64,000 bases of DNA, from positions 58,087 to 122,086 of IMG/VR virus record IMGVR_UViG_3300005805_000050, one strand, 5' to 3'. Each line of letters opens with the position of its first letter. Position 1 is the stretch's first letter. This DNA comes from a virus. The translations under genes and the position numbers were made by a program. The notes beneath the pieces are model-generated. The model had not been told where the DNA came from. It worked only from the letters and a program-made list of their open reading frames with translations, and searched no databases. This document shows, one piece after another, positions 6,178 through 61,059 of the stretch.

Positions 6178-7809
6178 ATGAAATACAAAGATTACTATTG
6201 GCTAAATAAAGAGGCTAGAAAATTCTTGTCTCGAGGATACATCACAGAAGAGGCTGAAGATCGCATAAAAGAAATTGCTATCACAGCAGAACGATACCTA
6301 GAAATTCCAGGGTTCGCAGAGAAGTTTGAACGCTATATGGCCAAAGGCTACTACAGCTTGGCAACTCCAGTGTGGATCAACTTTGGTAAAGAAAAGGGTT
6401 TGCCTATTTCTTGTTACGGATCCTACATCGAAGATTCGTTAGACAGTATGTTGTCCACAGCAAGAGAGATCGGCATGATGTCCAAATACGGTGGAGGAAC
6501 TTCTGCGTATTTAGGAGATATTAGACCCCGCGGCACAGACATAGCCACAGGAGGAAAAGCAGATGGACCCGTGCACTATGCACGATTATACGATACAGTA
6601 GTTGATGTGTGTAAACAGAGCGAAGCTCGCCGCGGCGCTTGCGCTGTATATCTACCGATAGAGCACAGCGACATCAATGAATTTTTGGACATTGGCACTG
6701 AAGGTAATCCCATACAAAACTTACAGTATGGAGTTACAGTCGGTGATCAATGGCTTTCTGAAATGAAAGCTGGTGACCCTGTTAAAAGAAAGGTGTGGGC
6801 GAAGGTGATACAACGCCGTTCGGAGTTTGGATACCCGTACATCATGTTCAGAGACAACTCGAACAACAACACGCCTTACAAAGAGTTGGGAAGGAAGATT
6901 ACTGCATCTAACTTGTGTAGCGAGATACAACTTCCAACCTCTGATAAGGAATCATTTGTCTGTTGCATCGGATCGATCAATCTCCTGCACTGGGACGAGA
7001 TAGAAAATACCGATGCTATTGAGGTTTACACGCAATTCCTCAACGCAGTGATGGATGAATTCTTAATCAAAGCAAAATCCAAACCAGGAATGAACAAGGC
7101 TTGGAACTTCGCTGTTAACCACAGAGCGATAGGCGTTGGAGTTCTTGGCTACCACTCGTTGTTGCAGTCTAAACTCATACCGTTCGAATCCCTTCAAGCG
7201 AAAGGATACAACGATAGGATATTTAGAACGCTGAAGGAGAGGACAGATGCAGCGTCTAAAAACTTGTACAAATCAGATCCTGACAGATACGAATGTATCA
7301 GACCTGGATTTGCTAACACCACGCTAATAGCAATCGCACCCACTAAATCGTCTTCGTTCATACTCGGTCAAGTTTCTATGGGTATCGAACCCATCAAGTC
7401 AAACTATTTCATCAAGGACCTTTCCAAGATCAAGACCATTTACAAGAATCCTTACCTTATTGAAGAACTCAAGAAGTACGATCTCGACAAAGAGGGAATA
7501 TGGGACAGCATCATGAAGAAGGACGGTTCCGTACAACACCTAGATTTCCCCACCAAGGAAGTGTTCAAGACGTTCCTTGAGATATCACCTAAAGAAATAA
7601 TCATACAGACTGCTCAAAGGCAAAAATACATCGATCAATCGCAAAGCGTGAACTTGATGATTCACCCCACCATTCCAGCAAAAGACATAAATTCCTTGTA
7701 CCTATATGCTCACGAAGAAGGTGTGAAAACTCTTTACTACCAATACTCTCAAAATTCGGCGCAAGCGTTCGCTAGGAATATTCTCGAGTGTGTCAACTGT
7801 GAGGCCTAA
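6178..7809 (+). CDS. nrdA: ribonucleotide reductase alpha subunit, short, no ATP cone
   Basis: LPISC, SNLCSEI, APTKSSS, KTLYY, C-terminal CVNCEA. Confidence 0.93.
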   Translation: MKYKDYYWLNKEARKFLSRGYITEEAEDRIKEIAITAERYLEIPGFAEKFERYMAKGYYSLATPVWINFGKEKGLPISCYGSYIEDSLDSMLSTAREIGMMSKYGGGTSAYLGDIRPRGTDIATGGKADGPVHYARLYDTVVDVCKQSEARRGACAVYLPIEHSDINEFLDIGTEGNPIQNLQYGVTVGDQWLSEMKAGDPVKRKVWAKVIQRRSEFGYPYIMFRDNSNNNTPYKELGRKITASNLCSEIQLPTSDKESFVCCIGSINLLHWDEIENTDAIEVYTQFLNAVMDEFLIKAKSKPGMNKAWNFAVNHRAIGVGVLGYHSLLQSKLIPFESLQAKGYNDRIFRTLKERTDAASKNLYKSDPDRYECIRPGFANTTLIAIAPTKSSSFILGQVSMGIEPIKSNYFIKDLSKIKTIYKNPYLIEELKKYDLDKEGIWDSIMKKDGSVQHLDFPTKEVFKTFLEISPKEIIIQTAQRQKYIDQSQSVNLMIHPTIPAKDINSLYLYAHEEGVKTLYYQYSQNSAQAFARNILECVNCEA

Positions 7810-8904: not shown

Positions 8905-11211
8905 ATGATAAATAAGAGTTATGTAATGGTGGATACCATGGAGAAGTTTCGCGCCATGGCCGACCACGTAAAGAAGCACGACATAGTCGCCTTCGACACA
9001 GAAACAACCTCCCTAAACCCAAGAAAAGGCAAGATCATAGGATTCTCTGTAAGCGCAGAGATCGGATACGGATATTACGTACCGACCATGATATTCAAAG
9101 ACGGGGAACTGAACGATGCATACATAGACGGACAGAGTGCACACGAGTTGGCAAAGCGATTCATCACAGCATTGACGACTAAGAAGCTTGTAATGCACAA
9201 TGCGTCATTCGACTGTAGATTCGTAAAGGCGTTTTACGATATAGATCTCACGCCAAGCTTGCACGCCGATACCATACTATTGGTACACACGCTCATGGAA
9301 GAGGGCGCAGGATACATGTCGAAATCGCCCTTCGCTCTCAAAGAAATCGCCAAGAGCATTCAAACGGAATTGGGTCTTGACGTAGAGAAGGAAGCTAACG
9401 AAGAGCAGATCGAACTCAAGAATTCCATAAAGAACAACGGAGGTTCGATAACTAAGGAGAACTACGAGATCTGGAAAGCGGACATCGATATCCTCTCAAA
9501 GTACGCTGCCGCCGATACTGACTTGACTCTACGTGTGTACAACTACTTCGAACCACAGCTAGACGTTCAAGGTCTTAGAAAGTTCTATTACGAGGACGAA
9601 GTCATGCCGCTGTACAAAGAAGTGACCATTCCCATGGAAAGCAGAGGCGTTAGACTCGACATGCCACTGATCACAGACGCCAAGCGTAAGATAAGCGAAG
9701 ATCTAAAGAAGTACCACGAACTGGTCATAAAGGAATTGCTTACGAATCCAGACGTTCGTACGTGGGTTATTTACAAAGCCACCGAAGCTTATCCTCCCAA
9801 CCACAAAGGCGCATACGCTCAGGAGTTGGCAGAGATGCACAACTTGGACATACCAAAATCAAAGAAGAACGGCAAGTACAGCATAACAACAGCTAACGTA
9901 TCTCAACTTCCCGATAGTCCCATAAAGGAATTTCTAGTGACAGGTAACGCTGATTCTTTACCCGAAGACATTCGCTTGAAAGTCAGCATGAAACTTTGGA
10001 AGGAGGACAACGATGGCTCTTACTTCAACATACAGTCTAAGGATCACATGGGCGAAATAGCCTTTGCGGTGCTGGGAATACAGCCTTTGTCAGAAACCAA
10101 GACAGGTAAACCCCAATTCGACGAGGACATGATACAACTCATAGCCGAGGATTACGAGTGGGCTAAACACCTCAGAGTGTACAACAAGCTGATGAAGATT
10201 AGTTCCACGTACATCGATAGGTTCTTAGAGAGCAACGAAGACGGCAAGTACTATTTCTCCTACAAGCAACACGGTACTGTGTCGGGTCGTTACGGATCGG
10301 ACGCTCAACAGTTGCCTAGACCTAAAGAGGAAGGCGACGACGATCAAGTCATTGTGGATTACAACAACTTGGTAAGAGCGTTCTTCATACCTTATGATGG
10401 AAACACGTTCATCGATAACGACTACGAATCTCTTGAACCCAAGACGTTCTCTCACGTATCAGGCGACGAAGGTCTTATGGACATCTTTAGAAACGGTTGG
10501 GACTTTTATTCCACCATCGCAATCAAAACCGAGAAACTGAACCAGTATTCTCCTGACAAAAAGGCTCCGAATTACTTGAGAAAGTTGGCTCCGCAATTGC
10601 GTAACAAGGCGAAAGCGTATTCCCTCGGAATTCCTTATGGCATGGGGCCTTACGCTCTTGGTAAGAACATCGGAGTGAAGACTAAGGAAGCAGAAGAGTT
10701 GGTAAATGGATACCTCGATGGATTTCCAAACCTGAAGAAGTGGATGCAGGATTCTAAAGCTTTCGCCAAGGAAAACGGCTACATCAAAACCCAAGTAGGT
10801 CGCATTCGACACTTGCCCAAAGTGCAACTGTTGTACAGCAAGTACGGAGACAAACTACTTGACTTCAAGTTCAAGATGCAGTTGGAAAAGCAGAAAGGTA
10901 AAGACCACGTGACAAACATGGTGAGAGACTACAAAAATGGTCTCAACAACAGTCTAAACGTGCAGATCCAGGGACTCGCAGCTTCAATAGTAAACCGCGC
11001 AGCTATCGCAATCAACCGAAGATACAAAGAAGCCGGTATAAAAGGTCAGGTCGTAGCACAGATTCACGACCAGCTGATCGTAGAGGTAGAAGAAGCAAGA
11101 TCTAAAGAGGCAGCAGAAATCATGCAGGATTGTATGGAAAACACAACCAAGCTGCGCATACCTTTGGTAGCAATTCCCTCTATTGCGCACAACTGGCGCG
11201 ACGGTCACTGA
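8905..11211 (+). CDS. polA: family A DNA polymerase (3'-5' exonuclease + polymerase)
   Basis: ExoI FDTETT, HNASFD, YAAADTD; motif A DYESLEPK; motif B RNKAKAYSLGIPYG; motif C QIHDQL. Confidence 0.95.
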   Translation: MINKSYVMVDTMEKFRAMADHVKKHDIVAFDTETTSLNPRKGKIIGFSVSAEIGYGYYVPTMIFKDGELNDAYIDGQSAHELAKRFITALTTKKLVMHNASFDCRFVKAFYDIDLTPSLHADTILLVHTLMEEGAGYMSKSPFALKEIAKSIQTELGLDVEKEANEEQIELKNSIKNNGGSITKENYEIWKADIDILSKYAAADTDLTLRVYNYFEPQLDVQGLRKFYYEDEVMPLYKEVTIPMESRGVRLDMPLITDAKRKISEDLKKYHELVIKELLTNPDVRTWVIYKATEAYPPNHKGAYAQELAEMHNLDIPKSKKNGKYSITTANVSQLPDSPIKEFLVTGNADSLPEDIRLKVSMKLWKEDNDGSYFNIQSKDHMGEIAFAVLGIQPLSETKTGKPQFDEDMIQLIAEDYEWAKHLRVYNKLMKISSTYIDRFLESNEDGKYYFSYKQHGTVSGRYGSDAQQLPRPKEEGDDDQVIVDYNNLVRAFFIPYDGNTFIDNDYESLEPKTFSHVSGDEGLMDIFRNGWDFYSTIAIKTEKLNQYSPDKKAPNYLRKLAPQLRNKAKAYSLGIPYGMGPYALGKNIGVKTKEAEELVNGYLDGFPNLKKWMQDSKAFAKENGYIKTQVGRIRHLPKVQLLYSKYGDKLLDFKFKMQLEKQKGKDHVTNMVRDYKNGLNNSLNVQIQGLAASIVNRAAIAINRRYKEAGIKGQVVAQIHDQLIVEVEEARSKEAAEIMQDCMENTTKLRIPLVAIPSIAHNWRDGH

Positions 11212-11222
11212 TATTTATTGAC

Positions 11223-11327
11223 ATGCAACTGACAAAGAGAGAAAGAAAAGCCAAAGCTAGAAAGCGCATGCAGAAGGAGAACCGACGCATAAACCAGCGA
11301 AAGGGTCTGCACCTGAAGCACACATAA
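11223..11327 (+). CDS. 34-aa highly basic peptide
   Basis: MQLTKRERKAKARKRMQKENRRINQRKGLHLKHT; ATATTTATT at 11211-11219 directly upstream. Confidence 0.55.
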   Translation: MQLTKRERKAKARKRMQKENRRINQRKGLHLKHT

Positions 11328-11369
11328 TTTTTACAGAGCATTACATATTTATAAAAAAACCTAAAGAAC

Positions 11370-11546
11370 ATGGAAATACTATTTTGGATCTTAGTTGGCG
11401 GAGTCATTTGTTTCATCGCCGTAAAAGCAGTAGAACTCAATAAGAAATCAGACGCTCCCCAGAGCGGTAACACTTCCGGTGGAGGTGGCTACACAGGCGT
11501 TGGAGGGGACGTAGCAGGAGAATTACCTAAAGAAAACAAAAAATAA
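11370..11546 (+). CDS. 58-aa single-pass membrane protein with Gly-rich tail
   Basis: MEILFWILVGGVICFIAV...; ATATTTATA at 11345-11353; below the ORF-track cutoff. Confidence 0.7.
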   Translation: MEILFWILVGGVICFIAVKAVELNKKSDAPQSGNTSGGGGYTGVGGDVAGELPKENKK

Positions 11547-11550
11547 GAGC

Positions 11551-12078
11551 ATGAAAAAGCTATTAAACGAAGTCAAAAGGATGCAAAAGATCGCGGGCAT
11601 CATCAGCGAAAGCCAGTACGAAGAGAGCGCAGACCTAGCAGATGAAAGCGAAATCAAAGGCGTAAAAGAGGCGAGAAATCAAGTACCCACTGTTCCCGGT
11701 AAACTGGAAATAGACGCCCAAGACCTAGGAGACGATCCGCGATCTTACCAAGACTCGGCTAGAGCGATAAAGACATATCTCACGAAAGCTGGTATCAAAG
11801 CCAAGGTCACAGGCGACTCCAATTTTGGAATGATTTACATACAATTGGCCGATCCGAAACAAGCTGCAAAAGCCACAAAAGTAATTCAAGACGAACTCGG
11901 ATACGAAGCCGTACCCTCACTTGACGACTCACCGGCCAGAATCGACTACGATCCAGACTATAAGGGACCCAGATGGGGCGAACCTACACGCGACGACTCA
12001 GGACCAGCCAGAATCGACTACGATCCCGACTATGCGGGACCCAGATGGGGCGAACAGCCGTTTTGGAAAAATAAATGA
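11551..12078 (+). CDS. hypothetical protein with C-terminal RIDYDPDYxGPRW repeats; possible readthrough to 12144
   Basis: N-terminal MKKLLNEVKRMQKIAGI; two repeats before the TGA and a third in frame after it. Confidence 0.75.
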   Translation: MKKLLNEVKRMQKIAGIISESQYEESADLADESEIKGVKEARNQVPTVPGKLEIDAQDLGDDPRSYQDSARAIKTYLTKAGIKAKVTGDSNFGMIYIQLADPKQAAKATKVIQDELGYEAVPSLDDSPARIDYDPDYKGPRWGEPTRDDSGPARIDYDPDYAGPRWGEQPFWKNK

Positions 12079-12141
12079 CCTACACACGAAGTCTCACCAA
12101 CTAGGATCGACTACGATCCCAACTATAAGGGACCTAGGTGG
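11911..12141 (+). repeat. three copies of a ~63-72 bp coding repeat
   Basis: Shared core a(g/a)(a/g)atcgactacgatcc(a/c)(g/a)actat...ggacc.ag.tgg near 11938, 12010 and 12103. Confidence 0.9.
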
Positions 12142-12160
12142 TAATAGCCTAAACAAAAAC

Positions 12161-12187
12161 AAAAGAGGGACTTCGGTCCCTTTTTTT
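12161..12187 (+). terminator. intrinsic terminator
   Basis: AAAAGAGGGAC-TTCG-GTCCC followed by T7. Confidence 0.9.
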
Positions 12188-12245
12188 ATGTCACTACGAA
12201 TGAAAATAGCTATACATTCTTGAAATTGTGTATATTTATAATAAA

Positions 12246-12800
12246 TAAACGATAAAGGTACGACAGGCCTTTAAGTTATGATTAGTTAAATTATTATTAA
12301 CCAAAAACAACGTCACAGGAGGACGTAGAACTATGACACAATTAACTAAATTCGCAGGTTTTGATCTTGATCCATTCGATCTGTTGTGGAAGAATTTCAT
12401 CGACCACGACTCAAGATTCAATACACTATTAGAAAAAGTAAACTATCCCACGGATATTTACGAAACCGCTGACGGCATCACATTCGAATTAGCCGTCGTT
12501 GGCCTCGACTCAAAAGACATCGTAATCGAAACACAGGGCGAGGTGCTGAGAATCAAGTACAACAAGGAAAAGCACGAAGACGAAACCAAGTACATTTACA
12601 AGGGCATCGCTAAACGTTCTTTCGACCTTGCTTGGAAAGTATCTTCTAAATTCGACCTCCCCAAACTGGAAGCGCAGTTGGAAAAGGGTCTGTTAACCAT
12701 TAAGGTTCCGTTTGCCGAGACTGCAAAAGCGAAAACGATTCAAATCAAAGAAATCAAGTCTCTAAATTAAGGTAAGGGGCCTGTCTTCCTTTATCGTTTA
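12246..12800 (+). repeat. long-range inverted repeat bracketing hsp20
   Basis: TAAACGATAAAGG-tac-GACAGGCC (12246-12269) is complementary to GGCCTGTC-tt-CCTTTATCGTTTA (12778-12800). Confidence 0.85.
12333..12770 (+). CDS. small heat shock protein Hsp20
   Basis: Alpha-crystallin domain: YPTDIYE, ELAVVG, YIYKGIAKRSF, LEKGLLTIKVP, C-terminal IQI. Confidence 0.92.
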   Translation: MTQLTKFAGFDLDPFDLLWKNFIDHDSRFNTLLEKVNYPTDIYETADGITFELAVVGLDSKDIVIETQGEVLRIKYNKEKHEDETKYIYKGIAKRSFDLAWKVSSKFDLPKLEAQLEKGLLTIKVPFAETAKAKTIQIKEIKSLN

Positions 12801-12804
12801 AGTT

Positions 12805-13002
12805 ATGCCATCTTTCAACATTACAAGAAACATCATAGAAGTCAACGATCAACTCTTCGAAGTCAAAAAGACTTTCAAGGAGGAGAGTGTTAAAGATCCC
12901 GTGGGACTCAAGGAGTTCTTCGGCTACGATGCCTTGTTTAAGAAAGATGGAGTGCTGTACTTTTGTAACCTAATTGTAGAACCAGAAATAGTAACCGATT
13001 AA
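12805..13002 (+). CDS. hypothetical protein, 65 aa
   Basis: aagttATG start; sits inside the chaperone operon. Confidence 0.7.
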   Translation: MPSFNITRNIIEVNDQLFEVKKTFKEESVKDPVGLKEFFGYDALFKKDGVLYFCNLIVEPEIVTD

Positions 13003-13010
13003 ACAAACAT

Positions 13011-13304
13011 ATGAGTAAATTAACACCACTGAACGGAAACGTAGTGCTCAAGAAAGTAGAAGAGTCTGAGCAGACCTACGGACAAATTGTTATTCCAGAC
13101 ATGGGCAAGGAAAAGCCCGAACTTGGAGAAGTAGTAGCCACTAGCGAGACGTACAACTGGCACAAGGGATCTTTCACCAAATCAAATTTGGAAGTGGGAC
13201 AACTTGTGTTGATTCCAAAAATGGGAGCGATGTCATTCTCTATAGACACAGAGGACTACATCGTCATTAAGGAAACTGAAGTATTAGCAATCGTAAAGAA
13301 ATAA
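13011..13304 (+). CDS. groS: co-chaperonin GroES
   Basis: LTPLNGNVVLK, GQIVIPD, GEVVA, ETEVLAIV. Confidence 0.92.
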   Translation: MSKLTPLNGNVVLKKVEESEQTYGQIVIPDMGKEKPELGEVVATSETYNWHKGSFTKSNLEVGQLVLIPKMGAMSFSIDTEDYIVIKETEVLAIVKK

Positions 13305-13305
13305 C

Positions 13306-14928
13306 ATGAGCACAACTAAAAACGTATTCGGCACAGAACTCAAGGAGAAGCTGTTGGCCGGCATAGAAAAACTAAACGAATCGGTTTCATCAACGCTTGG
13401 ACCAGGCGGCCGCACTGTTCTTATTCGCGAACCTAACGGAGAAGTGAAGATTACGAAAGACGGCGTCACGTGCGCTAAAGCGTTTCACAAACTGGAGGAC
13501 GACATCGAGGACATCGGAGCCCAATTGGTCAAACAGGTGAGTATCAAATCCGCTAACGAAGCGGGTGACGGTACAACCACTTCGACTCTCATCGCAACCG
13601 AACTCGTAAAAGAGGGTTTGAAGGAGATCAGAGGCGGAGCAAACGCTGTGGCTGTGAAGCGAGAATTGGATCGTCTAGCGTCAGCGGTTATCGAAGACAT
13701 TAAGAAGATCGCCATTGATGTCTCTTCAGAAGAACAGATCAAGCAAGTAGCAACCATCTCAGGCAACAACGACGAAGAGGTGGGTAATCTCATCGCTTCA
13801 GCTATCGATAAAGTTGGCAGAGAGGGCGTAGTTACTATCGAAGAGTCCAAAACTGGAGAAACCACGCTTGAAGCAGTAGAGGGTATGCAGTTTGAAAGGG
13901 GATACAAGAGCCCTTATTTCGTTACGAACAACACCACTATGCAAGCCGTGTTGGAAGACTGTTACGTCATGCTTTTCGACGGTCGAATTTCTACCGCTCA
14001 AGAGCTTTTACAGGTTCTGACAAAGGCCAATTCTGAAAGCAAACCGCTTCTCATCGTAGCTGAAGATTTCGGAGACGAGGCACTAGCCACTCTCATCGTA
14101 AATAAAATGAGAGGCATCGTACAAGTGTGCGCAGTGAAAGCTCCAGAGTTTGGCGAACGCAAGACGCTTGTACTCGAAGACATCGCTATCATCACTGGCG
14201 GTCAAGTCATATCGAAGGACAAGGGTCACAAGCTCGACAAGATTCCAGCAGCACAGTTGTCTCAATACCTTGGTAAAGCCCGCATGGTAACAGTATCTAA
14301 AGAGGATACTACTATCGTAGACGGAAAAGGGTCGGCTGAAGCAATCGAAGCCCGTGCTAACGAGATCAAAGATCAAATTGAAAAAGCACAGTCGTTCTTC
14401 GAAAAGGAGAAATTACAAGAGCGTCTTGGTAAAATGGTCGGAGGCGTAGCAGTGATTAGCGTAGGAGGAAATTCCGAGATCGAGATCAAAGAGAAGAAAG
14501 ATCGATTGGAAGACGCACTCTATGCAACTAAAGCGGCTCTCGTAGATGGAGTAGTGCCAGGCGGAGGAGCAACACTATTCCGCATTGCGCTGAAGCACAG
14601 AGGATGCGAGAGCAGAGAAGCCGATATTGCAGACGCCATTCTTAAAGACGCTATACAATCTCCTTTCAAGAAAATTCTACTCAACGCAGGTATCGAGAAT
14701 TGGTGGCAAAACATCCCCACTTCAGACAAAGACGTGTACGATGCAAAGTCGCACAAGCTTGTAGATGCATTTGAAGCAGGCATTCTTGATCCAGCTAAGG
14801 TCGTGATCACAGCTGTAAAAAACGCAGTATCGGTCGCAGGCACAATCCTCACTACTGAGTCCGTAGTCTTCGAGAAAAAAGACAAAGACGAAAAGGATAA
14901 TCAGTCGGGAGGAATGCCGATGATGTAA
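13306..14928 (+). CDS. groL: chaperonin GroEL
   Basis: TLGPGGR, TKDGVT, AGDGTTT, GMQFERGY, GVVPGGG, GILDP, GGMPMM tail. Confidence 0.97.
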   Translation: MSTTKNVFGTELKEKLLAGIEKLNESVSSTLGPGGRTVLIREPNGEVKITKDGVTCAKAFHKLEDDIEDIGAQLVKQVSIKSANEAGDGTTTSTLIATELVKEGLKEIRGGANAVAVKRELDRLASAVIEDIKKIAIDVSSEEQIKQVATISGNNDEEVGNLIASAIDKVGREGVVTIEESKTGETTLEAVEGMQFERGYKSPYFVTNNTTMQAVLEDCYVMLFDGRISTAQELLQVLTKANSESKPLLIVAEDFGDEALATLIVNKMRGIVQVCAVKAPEFGERKTLVLEDIAIITGGQVISKDKGHKLDKIPAAQLSQYLGKARMVTVSKEDTTIVDGKGSAEAIEARANEIKDQIEKAQSFFEKEKLQERLGKMVGGVAVISVGGNSEIEIKEKKDRLEDALYATKAALVDGVVPGGGATLFRIALKHRGCESREADIADAILKDAIQSPFKKILLNAGIENWWQNIPTSDKDVYDAKSHKLVDAFEAGILDPAKVVITAVKNAVSVAGTILTTESVVFEKKDKDEKDNQSGGMPMM

Positions 14929-14937
14929 ATTAGGGAT

Positions 14938-15045
14938 AGTCAGGTGGCGGAATTGGTAACGCACACGTAACGAGCTGATGTACACAGCACCCATAAAGAG
15001 AGTTACGTGGTGGTATAAATACAGGTTCGAATCCTGTCCTGACTA
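14938..15045 (+). tRNA. aberrant tRNA-like RNA with an extended anticodon arm
   Basis: Acceptor AGTCAGG/CCTGACT + A73; D arm GCGGAATTGGTAACGC; T arm ACAGG-TTCGAAT-CCTGT; 8-bp stem CACGTAAC/GTTACGTG enclosing 30 nt; no CCA. Confidence 0.75.
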
Positions 15046-15074
15046 CAAAAATTAGTTATGAAAAATAAAACAAC

Positions 15075-15956
15075 ATGTTCCTAAACAAAGCAACAGACCA
15101 GTCCAACTTGGACACCGAGGGAGGCAGGGATTTGAACTACTACCTCGAGATGACCAAGGACTACAAACCCGATTTTGAATTCAAGGTAAAACAGTTGGAA
15201 GGGTTCAACGTCATAGACGACGGAGAATTCCAATACGGTACCAAATCCAAGATGGGAGATTTCATGATCTCTCAAGTTAAAGAAGATACACTAGTATACG
15301 TGGCGCCGAGAACGGGATACGCGCCTTACTCTCTGACTTACCTCGCAAAGAAGTACAACAAGAAGCTTGTGTTGTTCATGCCCGCTTGCAAAGAAATCTC
15401 TGAACACCAACTGAGGGTCATAGAGGACGGAGCAACACCGATATTCATCAAGACGCCTGCAATGCCAACACTAAACTTATGGGCCAAGGAGTTCGCTAAG
15501 AAGACAGGCGCAAAGTACTTGCCCTTCGGTCTCAAGCACGAGCAGGTGGTTGCAGGCGGAGTGAAGATATTCTACGAGGCATTCAAAAACCAAAACATCG
15601 ATACGATGTGGACTGTATTCTCAACTGGTGTGCTGTCCAGAACTCTTCAGATCGCGCTATCTAACACAGCCTTTAATGCTGTTGCTGTTGCAAGAAACGT
15701 TCAACCAGGCGAGCTCGGTAGAGCACACTTTTACAGCTACGATAAAGCATTCACAAAGGAAACCAAAGCCCACGTTCCATTCGATTGCATCAAAACCTAC
15801 GACGCAAAGGGTTGGGAGTACATGAAAAAGTATGGCAAGGAAGGCGACTGGTTTTGGAACGTGGCTAGAAACATGCCGAAGGCCAGCATAAAGCCAAGCG
15901 ATGTGGACTCTGAACGCAAGTGGGGAGACAAGTCCGACATGGACAAGTACCTATAA
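15075..15956 (+). CDS. PLP-dependent fold-type II (PALP) enzyme
   Basis: GTK(S)K Schiff-base Lys region, TLVYVAPRTGYA, VFSTGVLS phosphate loop, YDAKGW, FWNV. Confidence 0.7.
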   Translation: MFLNKATDQSNLDTEGGRDLNYYLEMTKDYKPDFEFKVKQLEGFNVIDDGEFQYGTKSKMGDFMISQVKEDTLVYVAPRTGYAPYSLTYLAKKYNKKLVLFMPACKEISEHQLRVIEDGATPIFIKTPAMPTLNLWAKEFAKKTGAKYLPFGLKHEQVVAGGVKIFYEAFKNQNIDTMWTVFSTGVLSRTLQIALSNTAFNAVAVARNVQPGELGRAHFYSYDKAFTKETKAHVPFDCIKTYDAKGWEYMKKYGKEGDWFWNVARNMPKASIKPSDVDSERKWGDKSDMDKYL

Positions 15957-50662: not shown

Positions 50663-51057
50663 GGGGGCGACTGGTATTGACAGGTGAGATCAGTTGTTAC
50701 TTGCAAGCAGAGTCAGATGGGAACTCTTAAATCCCCTATCGCAGAATAAACGGAGAACAAATCTCTACCTTTACCTTCGCAGATGCCATGGCATTTGTAG
50801 GTGCAGAAGAATACGCCCTAGCGGCCTAATCTCGTCCCGCATCGCTCGTGGGATGGTTAAACAAGAAGCGAAGCAGTTTTCTTGGTAGTCACAAAACCAA
50901 GTGGTGGATCCCGGACCTCCGGAGCCCAGTATGGCGCAGCGGCCAAGTCGAACCGCTGCCACCGTCAGTTCGAGCGGTGTGAGAATTCGAAACAAGCTTG
51001 TAAACGAGGGTAGCAGTTGAATTATTCTGGACGTGGGTTCGAGTCCCACCGCCTCCA
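50663..51057 (+). ncRNA. ssrA: tmRNA
   Basis: Acceptor GGGGGCG/CGCCTCC with G3-U70; T arm GTGGG-TTCGAGT-CCCAC; resume context ATAAAC-GGA; tag GEQISTFTFADAMAFVGAEEYALAA* at 50752-50829. Confidence 0.95.
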
Positions 51058-51115
51058 CTGATATTTATTGGAAAGGTTATACTAAGGGTTTATGTAAACC
51101 TAAACAGTATAACAC

Positions 51116-59629: not shown

Positions 59630-60550
59630 ATGAAAACAATCAAATCAATCATCGCATTTGTCGCCATTATAGTAGTGGCCGCATCGTGCAATCTCCCTTT
59701 CGGAGATTCAACTAATCTCAACCCTAAGTATCCTACTGTGGATAACATGAATGCCTCAAGCGCAGCTCCTATCGCTGGTTCTTACGTCAACACTTTCACT
59801 AAGAGTACTGACAGCAAGACTCTGACGGTCACCATCGACCAGAGCACAGCGAAGAACATCAGCCACATCAACTTCACACTGACTGGTTGCGATGGAACTG
59901 CGCTCGACATCAATAACATCACAGGCTTCACTGCTAACGGAGTGGACGTGATGTCTAAACTGGGTACCACAGAGGGTCAAGGTAACTCCTGCTACGGTCT
60001 ATTGCCGAATCCGTTCGTTAAGTTGGACCTCGGTTTCACCACGCCGACAGTAACGTTGGTCATCACGCTCGACACGCCTGTGATGTCGGGTCAGATGCTC
60101 ATCAAGTCCGCTCAAGACTGTTGGGGACTCAACGATCCCAAGTTCATGTTCACTCTGACATGTCCAGATAAAGTAGCAAAGTGCTACCAAGATGAAACCG
60201 CGTGGGTTTCAGGCACACGCTATGTTACTCGTGGCAACTGGGCAACATATGCTGCGTATCAAGTTGGAACTGTAAATGTATACGCGGGTAAAAACCTATT
60301 CGCTGGAACTGCAACGTTCTCGGCTGTCGTGAATGGTAAAGTAACCATCACTATCGCGCTCAATGAGGGTTGGACCCTGCAAGAGGTAAGCAATCCGATT
60401 AAGATCCAGAACTACAGCGTGGCACCTACAGGCAATCCCTCACCCGGTCGCTTCGCATTCAAGGGATCTTCACTCACAGTTGAGGTACCCTTGGACAAGT
60501 TCTACGGCATACACCTTGACGTCAGACAAGCTGTTGACTGTCCGCTATGA
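59630..60550 (+). CDS. Bacteroidota-type surface lipoprotein, beta-rich
   Basis: Signal ending VAASC; Thr-rich strands; ETAW..GTRY...GNWATY. Confidence 0.75.
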   Translation: MKTIKSIIAFVAIIVVAASCNLPFGDSTNLNPKYPTVDNMNASSAAPIAGSYVNTFTKSTDSKTLTVTIDQSTAKNISHINFTLTGCDGTALDINNITGFTANGVDVMSKLGTTEGQGNSCYGLLPNPFVKLDLGFTTPTVTLVITLDTPVMSGQMLIKSAQDCWGLNDPKFMFTLTCPDKVAKCYQDETAWVSGTRYVTRGNWATYAAYQVGTVNVYAGKNLFAGTATFSAVVNGKVTITIALNEGWTLQEVSNPIKIQNYSVAPTGNPSPGRFAFKGSSLTVEVPLDKFYGIHLDVRQAVDCPL

Positions 60551-60652: not shown

Positions 60653-60675
60653 GGGGAGTGAAAGCTCCCCTTTTT
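60653..60675 (+). terminator. intrinsic terminator
   Basis: GGGGAG-TGAAAG-CTCCCC followed by T5. Confidence 0.8.
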
Positions 60676-60699
60676 CTTTTTCCCCGATATTTATTTAAT

Positions 60700-61059
60700 A
60701 TGATAAAGCTAGAATCTTTATTGAATGAACTGGAGTTTGGATCCGGATTGGGTTCCACTGAACCAGATTACAAGGAGGTTCCTATGTCAGTGAGCTTACA
60801 ATATGTTACTCGTAGCGGATATAAGGCCACACCTAAAACAGTAAGTGGTATGGGAAGATTAACAAATATATCAAATACTGCGTATCCTATAATTCAAATA
60901 GATGTAGAGGGAGACCATCCTATTAAGATCATATGGAAGAGCAATCTAAAGGCATATACGCTATTCAATGAGAACAATATAATCGTAGAACCCAATGACG
61001 AGAACTCTTTGAATATGATGATAAAATTACGTAAAAAATCAGAATACCAAGGATTATGA
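60700..61059 (+). CDS. hypothetical protein starting MIKLESLLNE
   Basis: ATG 60700 lies 5 nt after ATATTTAT (60687-60694). Confidence 0.7.
   Translation: MIKLESLLNELEFGSGLGSTEPDYKEVPMSVSLQYVTRSGYKATPKTVSGMGRLTNISNTAYPIIQIDVEGDHPIKIIWKSNLKAYTLFNENNIIVEPNDENSLNMMIKLRKKSEYQGL

Follow-up and report, generated by a model that had tools for sequence, protein, structure and literature searches.

In the single-stranded RNA phage Qbeta (Qubevirus), the UGA that closes the coat gene is followed by an in-frame extension lacking a start of its own, and near-cognate decoding of this codon yields a minor isoform, the A1 protein, whose extension is a distinct and essential domain of about 200 amino acids that has been shown at the protein level. 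The locus analyzed here is similar in that a UGA is followed by in-frame codons without their own start, a minor isoform made by near-cognate decoding being hypothetical in this case. Unlike the A1 extension, the one considered here comprises 21 amino acids that repeat a motif present upstream of the stop, and it belongs to an orphan gene of a tailed DNA phage, known from sequence alone. Another point of comparison is the ordinary decay of a tandem-repeat protein, which likewise leaves an in-frame terminal unit behind a stop; at our locus the presumed old stops and the terminator have been kept. What sets the locus apart from such decay is that the truncated form is common to a relative at 4.6% protein divergence, and yet the copy behind the stop has acquired neither a stop nor an indel and its core is intact. 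The gene also invites comparison with phage T4 through its N-terminus. The head protease of T4, gp21, has the cleavage consensus L/I-x-E. In this phage, diverse internal proteins have only a capsid targeting sequence in common, and gp21 removes it by cutting after Glu (PMC3012670, PMC5694885, PMC9026906).

The gene and its genomic surroundings

The DNA analyzed, called the window in what follows, is a stretch of 64,000 nucleotides that forms the right-hand half of an IMG/VR virus record of 122 kb, itself about 75% complete. Its source is a freshwater tailed DNA phage of Bacteroidota, a polA-type relative of Flavobacterium phage that is not T4-like, and among cultured phages a Flavobacterium myovirus, 54% identical in polA, comes nearest to it. 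The gene under study lies between polA and hsp20, and its features are collected in Table 1.

Table 1. Features of the orphan gene and its immediate surroundings (positions in the window).
Feature	Position	Strand	Basis and remarks
Small membrane-protein gene	11370-11546		Upstream; the orphan gene starts 4 nt past its stop
Orphan accessory gene, 175 aa	11551-12078	+	ORF listing, translation
N-terminal leader MKKLLNEVKRMQKIAGIISE	11551-11610	+	Leader alignment; putative capsid-targeting propeptide, predicted to be cut after Glu20
Beta-alpha-beta-beta-alpha-beta (ferredoxin/RRM-like) domain, residues 50-122	11698-11916	+	AlphaFold2 single-sequence model
Repeat copy 1 PSLDDSPARIDYDPDYKGPRWGE	11914-11982	+	Repeat finder, alignment; predicted disordered
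Repeat copy 2 PTRDDSGPARIDYDPDYAGPRWGE	11983-12054	+	Repeat finder, alignment
24-nt segment coding QPFWKNK plus TGA (TGA at 12076-12078)	12055-12078	+	In frame, exactly between two unit boundaries
Repeat copy 3 PTHEVSPTRIDYDPNYKGPRW	12079-12141	+	Translation, alignment; behind the stop, without an in-frame start of its own
Tandem stops TAA TAG, probably the ancestral ORF end	12142-12147	+	Sequence; terminator spacing
Intrinsic terminator (stem, UUCG loop, T-run)	12161-12188	+	Hairpin search

Profile searches with the 175-aa protein returned no Pfam and no PHROGs family. A single-sequence AlphaFold2 model gave a pLDDT of about 90 for residues 50-122 and a disordered repeat tail, and fold searches of the 175-aa protein retrieved only a generic ferredoxin/RRM/ACT/SPOR-like superfold (ESM Atlas; Foldseek, E>1e-3; VIA, Z 8-9.4). 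The product is most likely a strain-specific accessory protein, modeled as a cleavable leader followed by an acidic linker, a ferredoxin-like domain, and a disordered repeat tail.

The distribution of the gene is narrow. Among 55 polA-related IMG/VR loci (57-88% identity), neither the 175-aa protein nor the motif of its tail occurs in a single one, and no homolog of the gene was found in four relatives searched over their whole records, one of which is a complete genome of 183 kb. In L004 and L005, the closest relatives, the order is polA, small membrane protein, terminator, and hsp20, with no orphan gene; alignment with them shows the gene inserted between the stop of the membrane protein and an A-rich stretch before the terminator, similarity being picked up again directly after TAA TAG, and in both of them the position of the terminator is held by a different hairpin. 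The spacer between polA and hsp20 (11212-12332 in the window) is a hypervariable slot, because its length spans 78 to 3530 nt across the 55 relatives, and the orphan gene is, as judged from these alignments, a young and dispensable insert in this slot of variable cargo.

The repeat array and its motif

In the original prediction, the ORF ended in QPFWKNK-TGA, and the 21 in-frame codons that follow were a third copy of the upstream repeat, succeeded by TAA TAG and a terminator; this layout is correct. The repeat unit measures 21-24 aa, and the repeat finder and the alignment place the three copies in register. In fact, unit 2 ends in TGG GGC GAA and unit 3 begins with CCT ACA C, so that the 24-nt segment coding QPFWKNK and the TGA stands exactly between them; no second copy of this segment was found in the genome or in the loci of the relatives. 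The short motif of the tail has the consensus ARIDYDPDYxGPRWGE, the tail-motif peptide being ARIDYDPDYKGPRWGE.

This motif had been called undescribed, and the searches of 1.84 billion representative proteins, IMG/VR, JGI metagenomes, and GenBank phages, which brought up no other match, bear that description out. A degenerate pattern for the motif DNA had no match in IMG/VR; a DNA pattern for a shorter motif core gave six single, chance-like matches in GTDB genomes; and neither the gene nor the motif was matched in GenBank phages by blastn or tblastn. Scans of IMG/VR and JGI metagenomes with the 175-aa protein matched its N-terminal leader only. An exhaustive HMMER search of the 1.84 billion representatives recovered one relative (P0001, see below) and one leader match and nothing else, and word-index searches with the tail alone, for shorter and for longer proteins, gave no match. 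The core of the motif, D-Y-D-P-[DN]-Y (11944-11961, 12016-12033, and 12109-12126), has the D-x-D-x-[DN] spacing seen in calcium-binding loops. A calcium-binding reading was considered and set aside, as it consists of this resemblance, and no EF-hand or similar family was matched.

The TGA as a stop codon

The identical 175-aa protein is encoded on six contigs from JGI/IMG, Logan, and ENA. Moreover, two relatives known as proteins only, P0001 (207 aa) and P0003 (210 aa), which are 94% identical over the common body, both end in GEQPFWKNK. Because these two end at the same residue, the stop must be older than the split of the two lineages. It is therefore extremely improbable that the site holds a sense codon and that the TGA is an assembly or sequencing error, since six contigs from three sources agree and diverged relatives stop at the same residue; a homopolymer shift, for its part, could not restore the frame, copy 3 being in frame 0 already.

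TGA had also been taken as a normal stop in this phage, and rightly so: it terminates 35 of the 127 long ORFs of the genome. One of these is polA, whose TGA falls, as claimed, at the natural C-terminus, at the same residue as in the 88% identical homolog of L004 and one residue short of that of L005. A special meaning of the TGA at this one site, whether by code reassignment, by a suppressor tRNA of the phage or by selenocysteine, would have in its favor the open frame after the codon and nothing more, and can hardly be credited. Such recoding is rejected because of the stop usage just described, including a conserved polA end, and because neither a matching tRNA nor a SECIS was found: in the 122 kb of the record (about 75% of the genome) ARAGORN found no UCA tRNA, a single tRNA-like gene with an insert being present besides a tmRNA, and an Rfam E-value scan of 11000-15500 gave no SECIS. 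The nearest hairpin after the TGA starts 12-21 nt downstream and has the loop ACUA. The tmRNA gene called by ARAGORN occupies 50663-51058 of the window (108749-109144 of the genome) and has the tag peptide AEEYALAA. The tRNA-like gene (14938-15046) is of class II, scores 46 bits against the Rfam tRNA model, and carries an insert of about 30 nt in its anticodon arm; the intron mode of ARAGORN reads it as Ser(cga) with a 29-nt intron, the standard mode reports nothing, and as read it is not a UCA suppressor.

The context of the stop is AAA UGA C, that is, UGA with C at position +4. A C directly after UGA makes for weak termination (PMC7026636), and a passage of PMC5373646 cites Poole, Brown and Tate (1995) for it. 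The leaky context invoked in the original prediction thus stands as far as its weakness is concerned (PMC7026636), but not as independent evidence, because every repeat unit opens with a Pro codon and the +4 C is the first base of that codon. Across the genome, TGA-C accounts for 4 of the 35 TGA stops against a C content of 20%, and avoidance is not clear. As for the extension, copy 3 offers 21 codons without ATG, GTG or TTG before TAA TAG; at least 21 open codons follow the stop in 17% of the ORFs ended by TGA, and two other genes with TGA-C (59630-60550 and 60658-61059 in the window) have open extensions of 22 and 33 codons, respectively, which are evident junk. An open extension is in itself not unusual; the repeat copy is the sole unusual element.

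The leader peptide and the head protease

The N-terminal leader, MKxxLNE[IV]KRMQKLAG[IL][IL]xE, is about 20-27 aa long and heads at least 14 phage ORFs of 78-442 aa that are otherwise unrelated. Its sites include 11551-11631 of the window, 6762-7706 of the same genome, and L079 (2190-2603), L016 (6179-7279), L033 (4453-4827), L006 (1178-1504), and L065-L076; two of these ORFs (in L016 and L033) sit in the polA-hsp20 slot of relatives. The leader is conserved at the peptide level, since its wobble bases vary, and no family or paper describing it was found. At the level of sequence, 11 of the 12 aligned leaders carry [IL]-x-E, and similarity stops right after it. The same genome has a gene for a gp21-type prohead protease (PF03420, 82.5 bits, above the cut-off; phrog_207, 1.7e-46), which is flanked by those for the portal and the major head protein and is directly followed by a leader-bearing ORF of 314 aa; in the complete relative, a leader ORF of 137 aa lies two genes upstream of its protease.

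The likeness to the T4 internal proteins (IPI, IPII, IPIII, and Alt) consists of a short conserved N-terminal peptide on unrelated, fast-changing small proteins at variable loci, of a similarity that ends at a Glu fitting gp21-type cleavage, and of the presence of the protease in the same genome with leader ORFs inside the head-gene module. On the other hand, the T4 CTS (10 aa) and the leader described here (about 20 aa) have no sequence likeness, the phage is not T4-like, and packaging and cleavage are predictions in our case. Taken with the gp21-type head protease, the leader suggests a capsid-targeted internal protein, because it stops at a Glu site, because the protease is encoded, and because of the T4 parallel. 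By analogy, the chances appear about even that the 175-aa protein enters the head, loses its leader by a cut after Glu20, and is injected; the predicted new N-terminus after such a cut would be SQYEESADLADESEIK (SQYEES...). In P0001, residues 1-57 form a different N-terminal module that replaces the leader and is joined exactly at residue 28 (ADLADESE), which shows that modules are shuffled. This 57-aa module contains the string EFDYEDDPD, faintly like the tail motif.

Substitutions in the third copy

An ancestral repeat unit was reconstructed from the three copies, and copy 3 was compared against that unit; the reconstruction is supported by a His present both in copy 2 of the relative and in copy 3 of the window, where copy 2 of the window has Arg. 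The codon differences reported earlier for copy 3 (AGA to AGG twice, CCC to CCT, and D to N) are correct, but the protein-level selection that had been read from them is not borne out. Copy 3 has eight changes, which in frame 0 are four synonymous and four non-synonymous, and in each of the other frames two and six. A neutral simulation of eight substitutions with a matching transition/transversion mix yields at least four synonymous changes with P=0.14 and no stop with P=0.72, so that the result is not significant. The linker part of the copy has three non-synonymous changes out of four, and its 13-residue core differs from the ancestral unit by the D to N change and three synonymous ones (four when compared with copy 1). 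The branch of copy 3 is eight changes long and that of the coding copy 1 six, and on a rough Poisson estimate the copy-3 branch is only about twice as well explained by constraint through most of the past as by prolonged neutral drift. Any synonymous bias in copy 3 could date from before the stop arose. The repeated AGA to AGG change was also considered as a shift in codon preference and is uninformative, and an alternative-frame ORF (11921-12223) was rejected: it crosses the terminator, and six of the eight changes in copy 3 are non-synonymous in that frame.

Origin and fate of the third copy

On balance, copy 3 is probably the stranded repeat of a once longer protein, with at most an incidental leak through the stop. 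The ancestral ORF would have run through three repeats to the tandem TAA TAG, and an in-frame, stop-bearing segment of 24 nt, or else a nonsense change within a longer linker, would have cut it after repeat 2. The product of today would then be essentially the 175-aa form with two repeats, released at UGA by RF2, and repeat 3 would be an untranslated leftover in the 3' UTR whose decay is still to come. Near-cognate misreading of UGA, probably by tRNA-Trp, may add a small and unselected share of a 197-aa form with three repeats, which would be harmless because a motif already present is repeated once more before the tandem stops end the chain. The order of events and the amount of leak given here are those that we infer. 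Several observations agree with this account. The stop is real and not brand new, as the six contigs and the relatives with the same C-terminus show, and the 24-nt segment between the unit boundaries fits the place where an insertion into a three-unit array would sit. The terminator lies 15 nt past TAA TAG and 84 nt past the TGA, the other clean terminators of the genome being 3-22 nt past their ORF; from this spacing and from the similarity that resumes after TAA TAG, position 12147 appears to be the former end of the ORF. Copy 3 gives no significant indication of being under selection as protein at present, three of its eight changes add RNA base pairs instead, and no recoding machinery was found (no UCA tRNA and no SECIS, with TGA ending 35 of 127 ORFs). 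A truncation would have been tolerated because the gene is a young and dispensable insert in a variable slot. What speaks against a stranded repeat is that copy 3 is fully intact and its core near-unchanged, that its branch (8 changes) is about equal in length to the branch of the coding copy 1 (6), with selection fitting about twice as well on the Poisson estimate, and that UGA-C is a weak termination context (PMC7026636). In addition, copy 3 has survived for some time behind the stop, since the stop persists across a protein divergence of 4.6% to the relative.

These last points are also those on which a programmed, that is, selected, readthrough would draw, in which a near-cognate tRNA decodes UGA-C and a 197-aa form with three copies is made beside the 175-aa form with two, so that the valency of the tail changes. 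The weak context (PMC7026636) would serve it, as would a third copy that is in frame, abuts the stop, has no start of its own, and keeps an intact core on a branch as short as that of a coding copy; so would the same protein end in the 94% identical relative and the tandem TAA TAG that closes the extension. A hairpin, moreover, starts 12-21 nt past the TGA, although we know of no structure-stimulated readthrough established in bacteria. Nevertheless, the selection test (P=0.14) is not significant and does not tell an earlier constraint from a current one, the +4 C follows from the Pro codon at the start of the unit, the genome shows no clear avoidance of TGA-C (4 of 35 against 20% C), two other TGA-C genes have equally long junk extensions, and it is not evident how a three-copy form making up a few percent of the protein would be of benefit. 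We regard programmed readthrough as possible though unlikely, the stranded leftover being the more likely of the two. Slightly less likely again is the fuller proposal for this tailed DNA phage of Bacteroidota, in which selection would maintain the TGA as a leaky stop, a capsid-targeted, injected accessory protein would come in forms of different valency, one with two copies and one with three of a binding motif found nowhere else, and copy 3 would persist because the rare long form is selected for. A frameshift or transcriptional slippage at the A-run was dropped because copy 3 is in frame 0 already, and ribosomal bypass was rejected, there being no matched take-off and landing design. A role at the RNA level has also been weighed, in which copy 3, lying ahead of the terminator, would be retained for its structure as part of the 3' UTR, e.g., for mRNA stability. 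The RNA of copy 3 (12079-12147) folds into a nested hairpin (-17.7 kcal/mol, z -2.1, MFE share 0.29) and does so better than copies 1 and 2, copy 1 being unstructured (z +1.7). Its private changes create a perfect GGAUCG/CGAUCC stem; A14T, A27G, and A60G each add one base pair, their reversion costing 2 to 4.9 kcal/mol, and two of the copy-3 changes make the palindrome ACCTAGGT. However, random sets of eight substitutions reach equal energy 5.4% of the time, which is marginal and post hoc, and the 3' end is already protected by the terminator hairpin, so this role seems quite improbable. An alternative hairpin between 12127-12134 and the 3' arm of the terminator was discarded, being much weaker than the UUCG terminator.

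Biological significance

If readthrough were true, very few cases from tailed DNA phages would stand beside it, and it would be the first known to us in which a leaky stop determines how many short binding motifs a protein carries. On present evidence, however, the better reading of the feature is that a repeat protein encoded by a disposable gene has undergone ordinary decay, and it calls for caution against over-reading in-frame repeats behind stops. The leader set, together with the T4-type head protease, points to capsid-packaged and probably injected proteins in uncultured freshwater phages; it parallels the internal proteins of T4, which act as anti-defence proteins, and may be a more useful result than the stop question.
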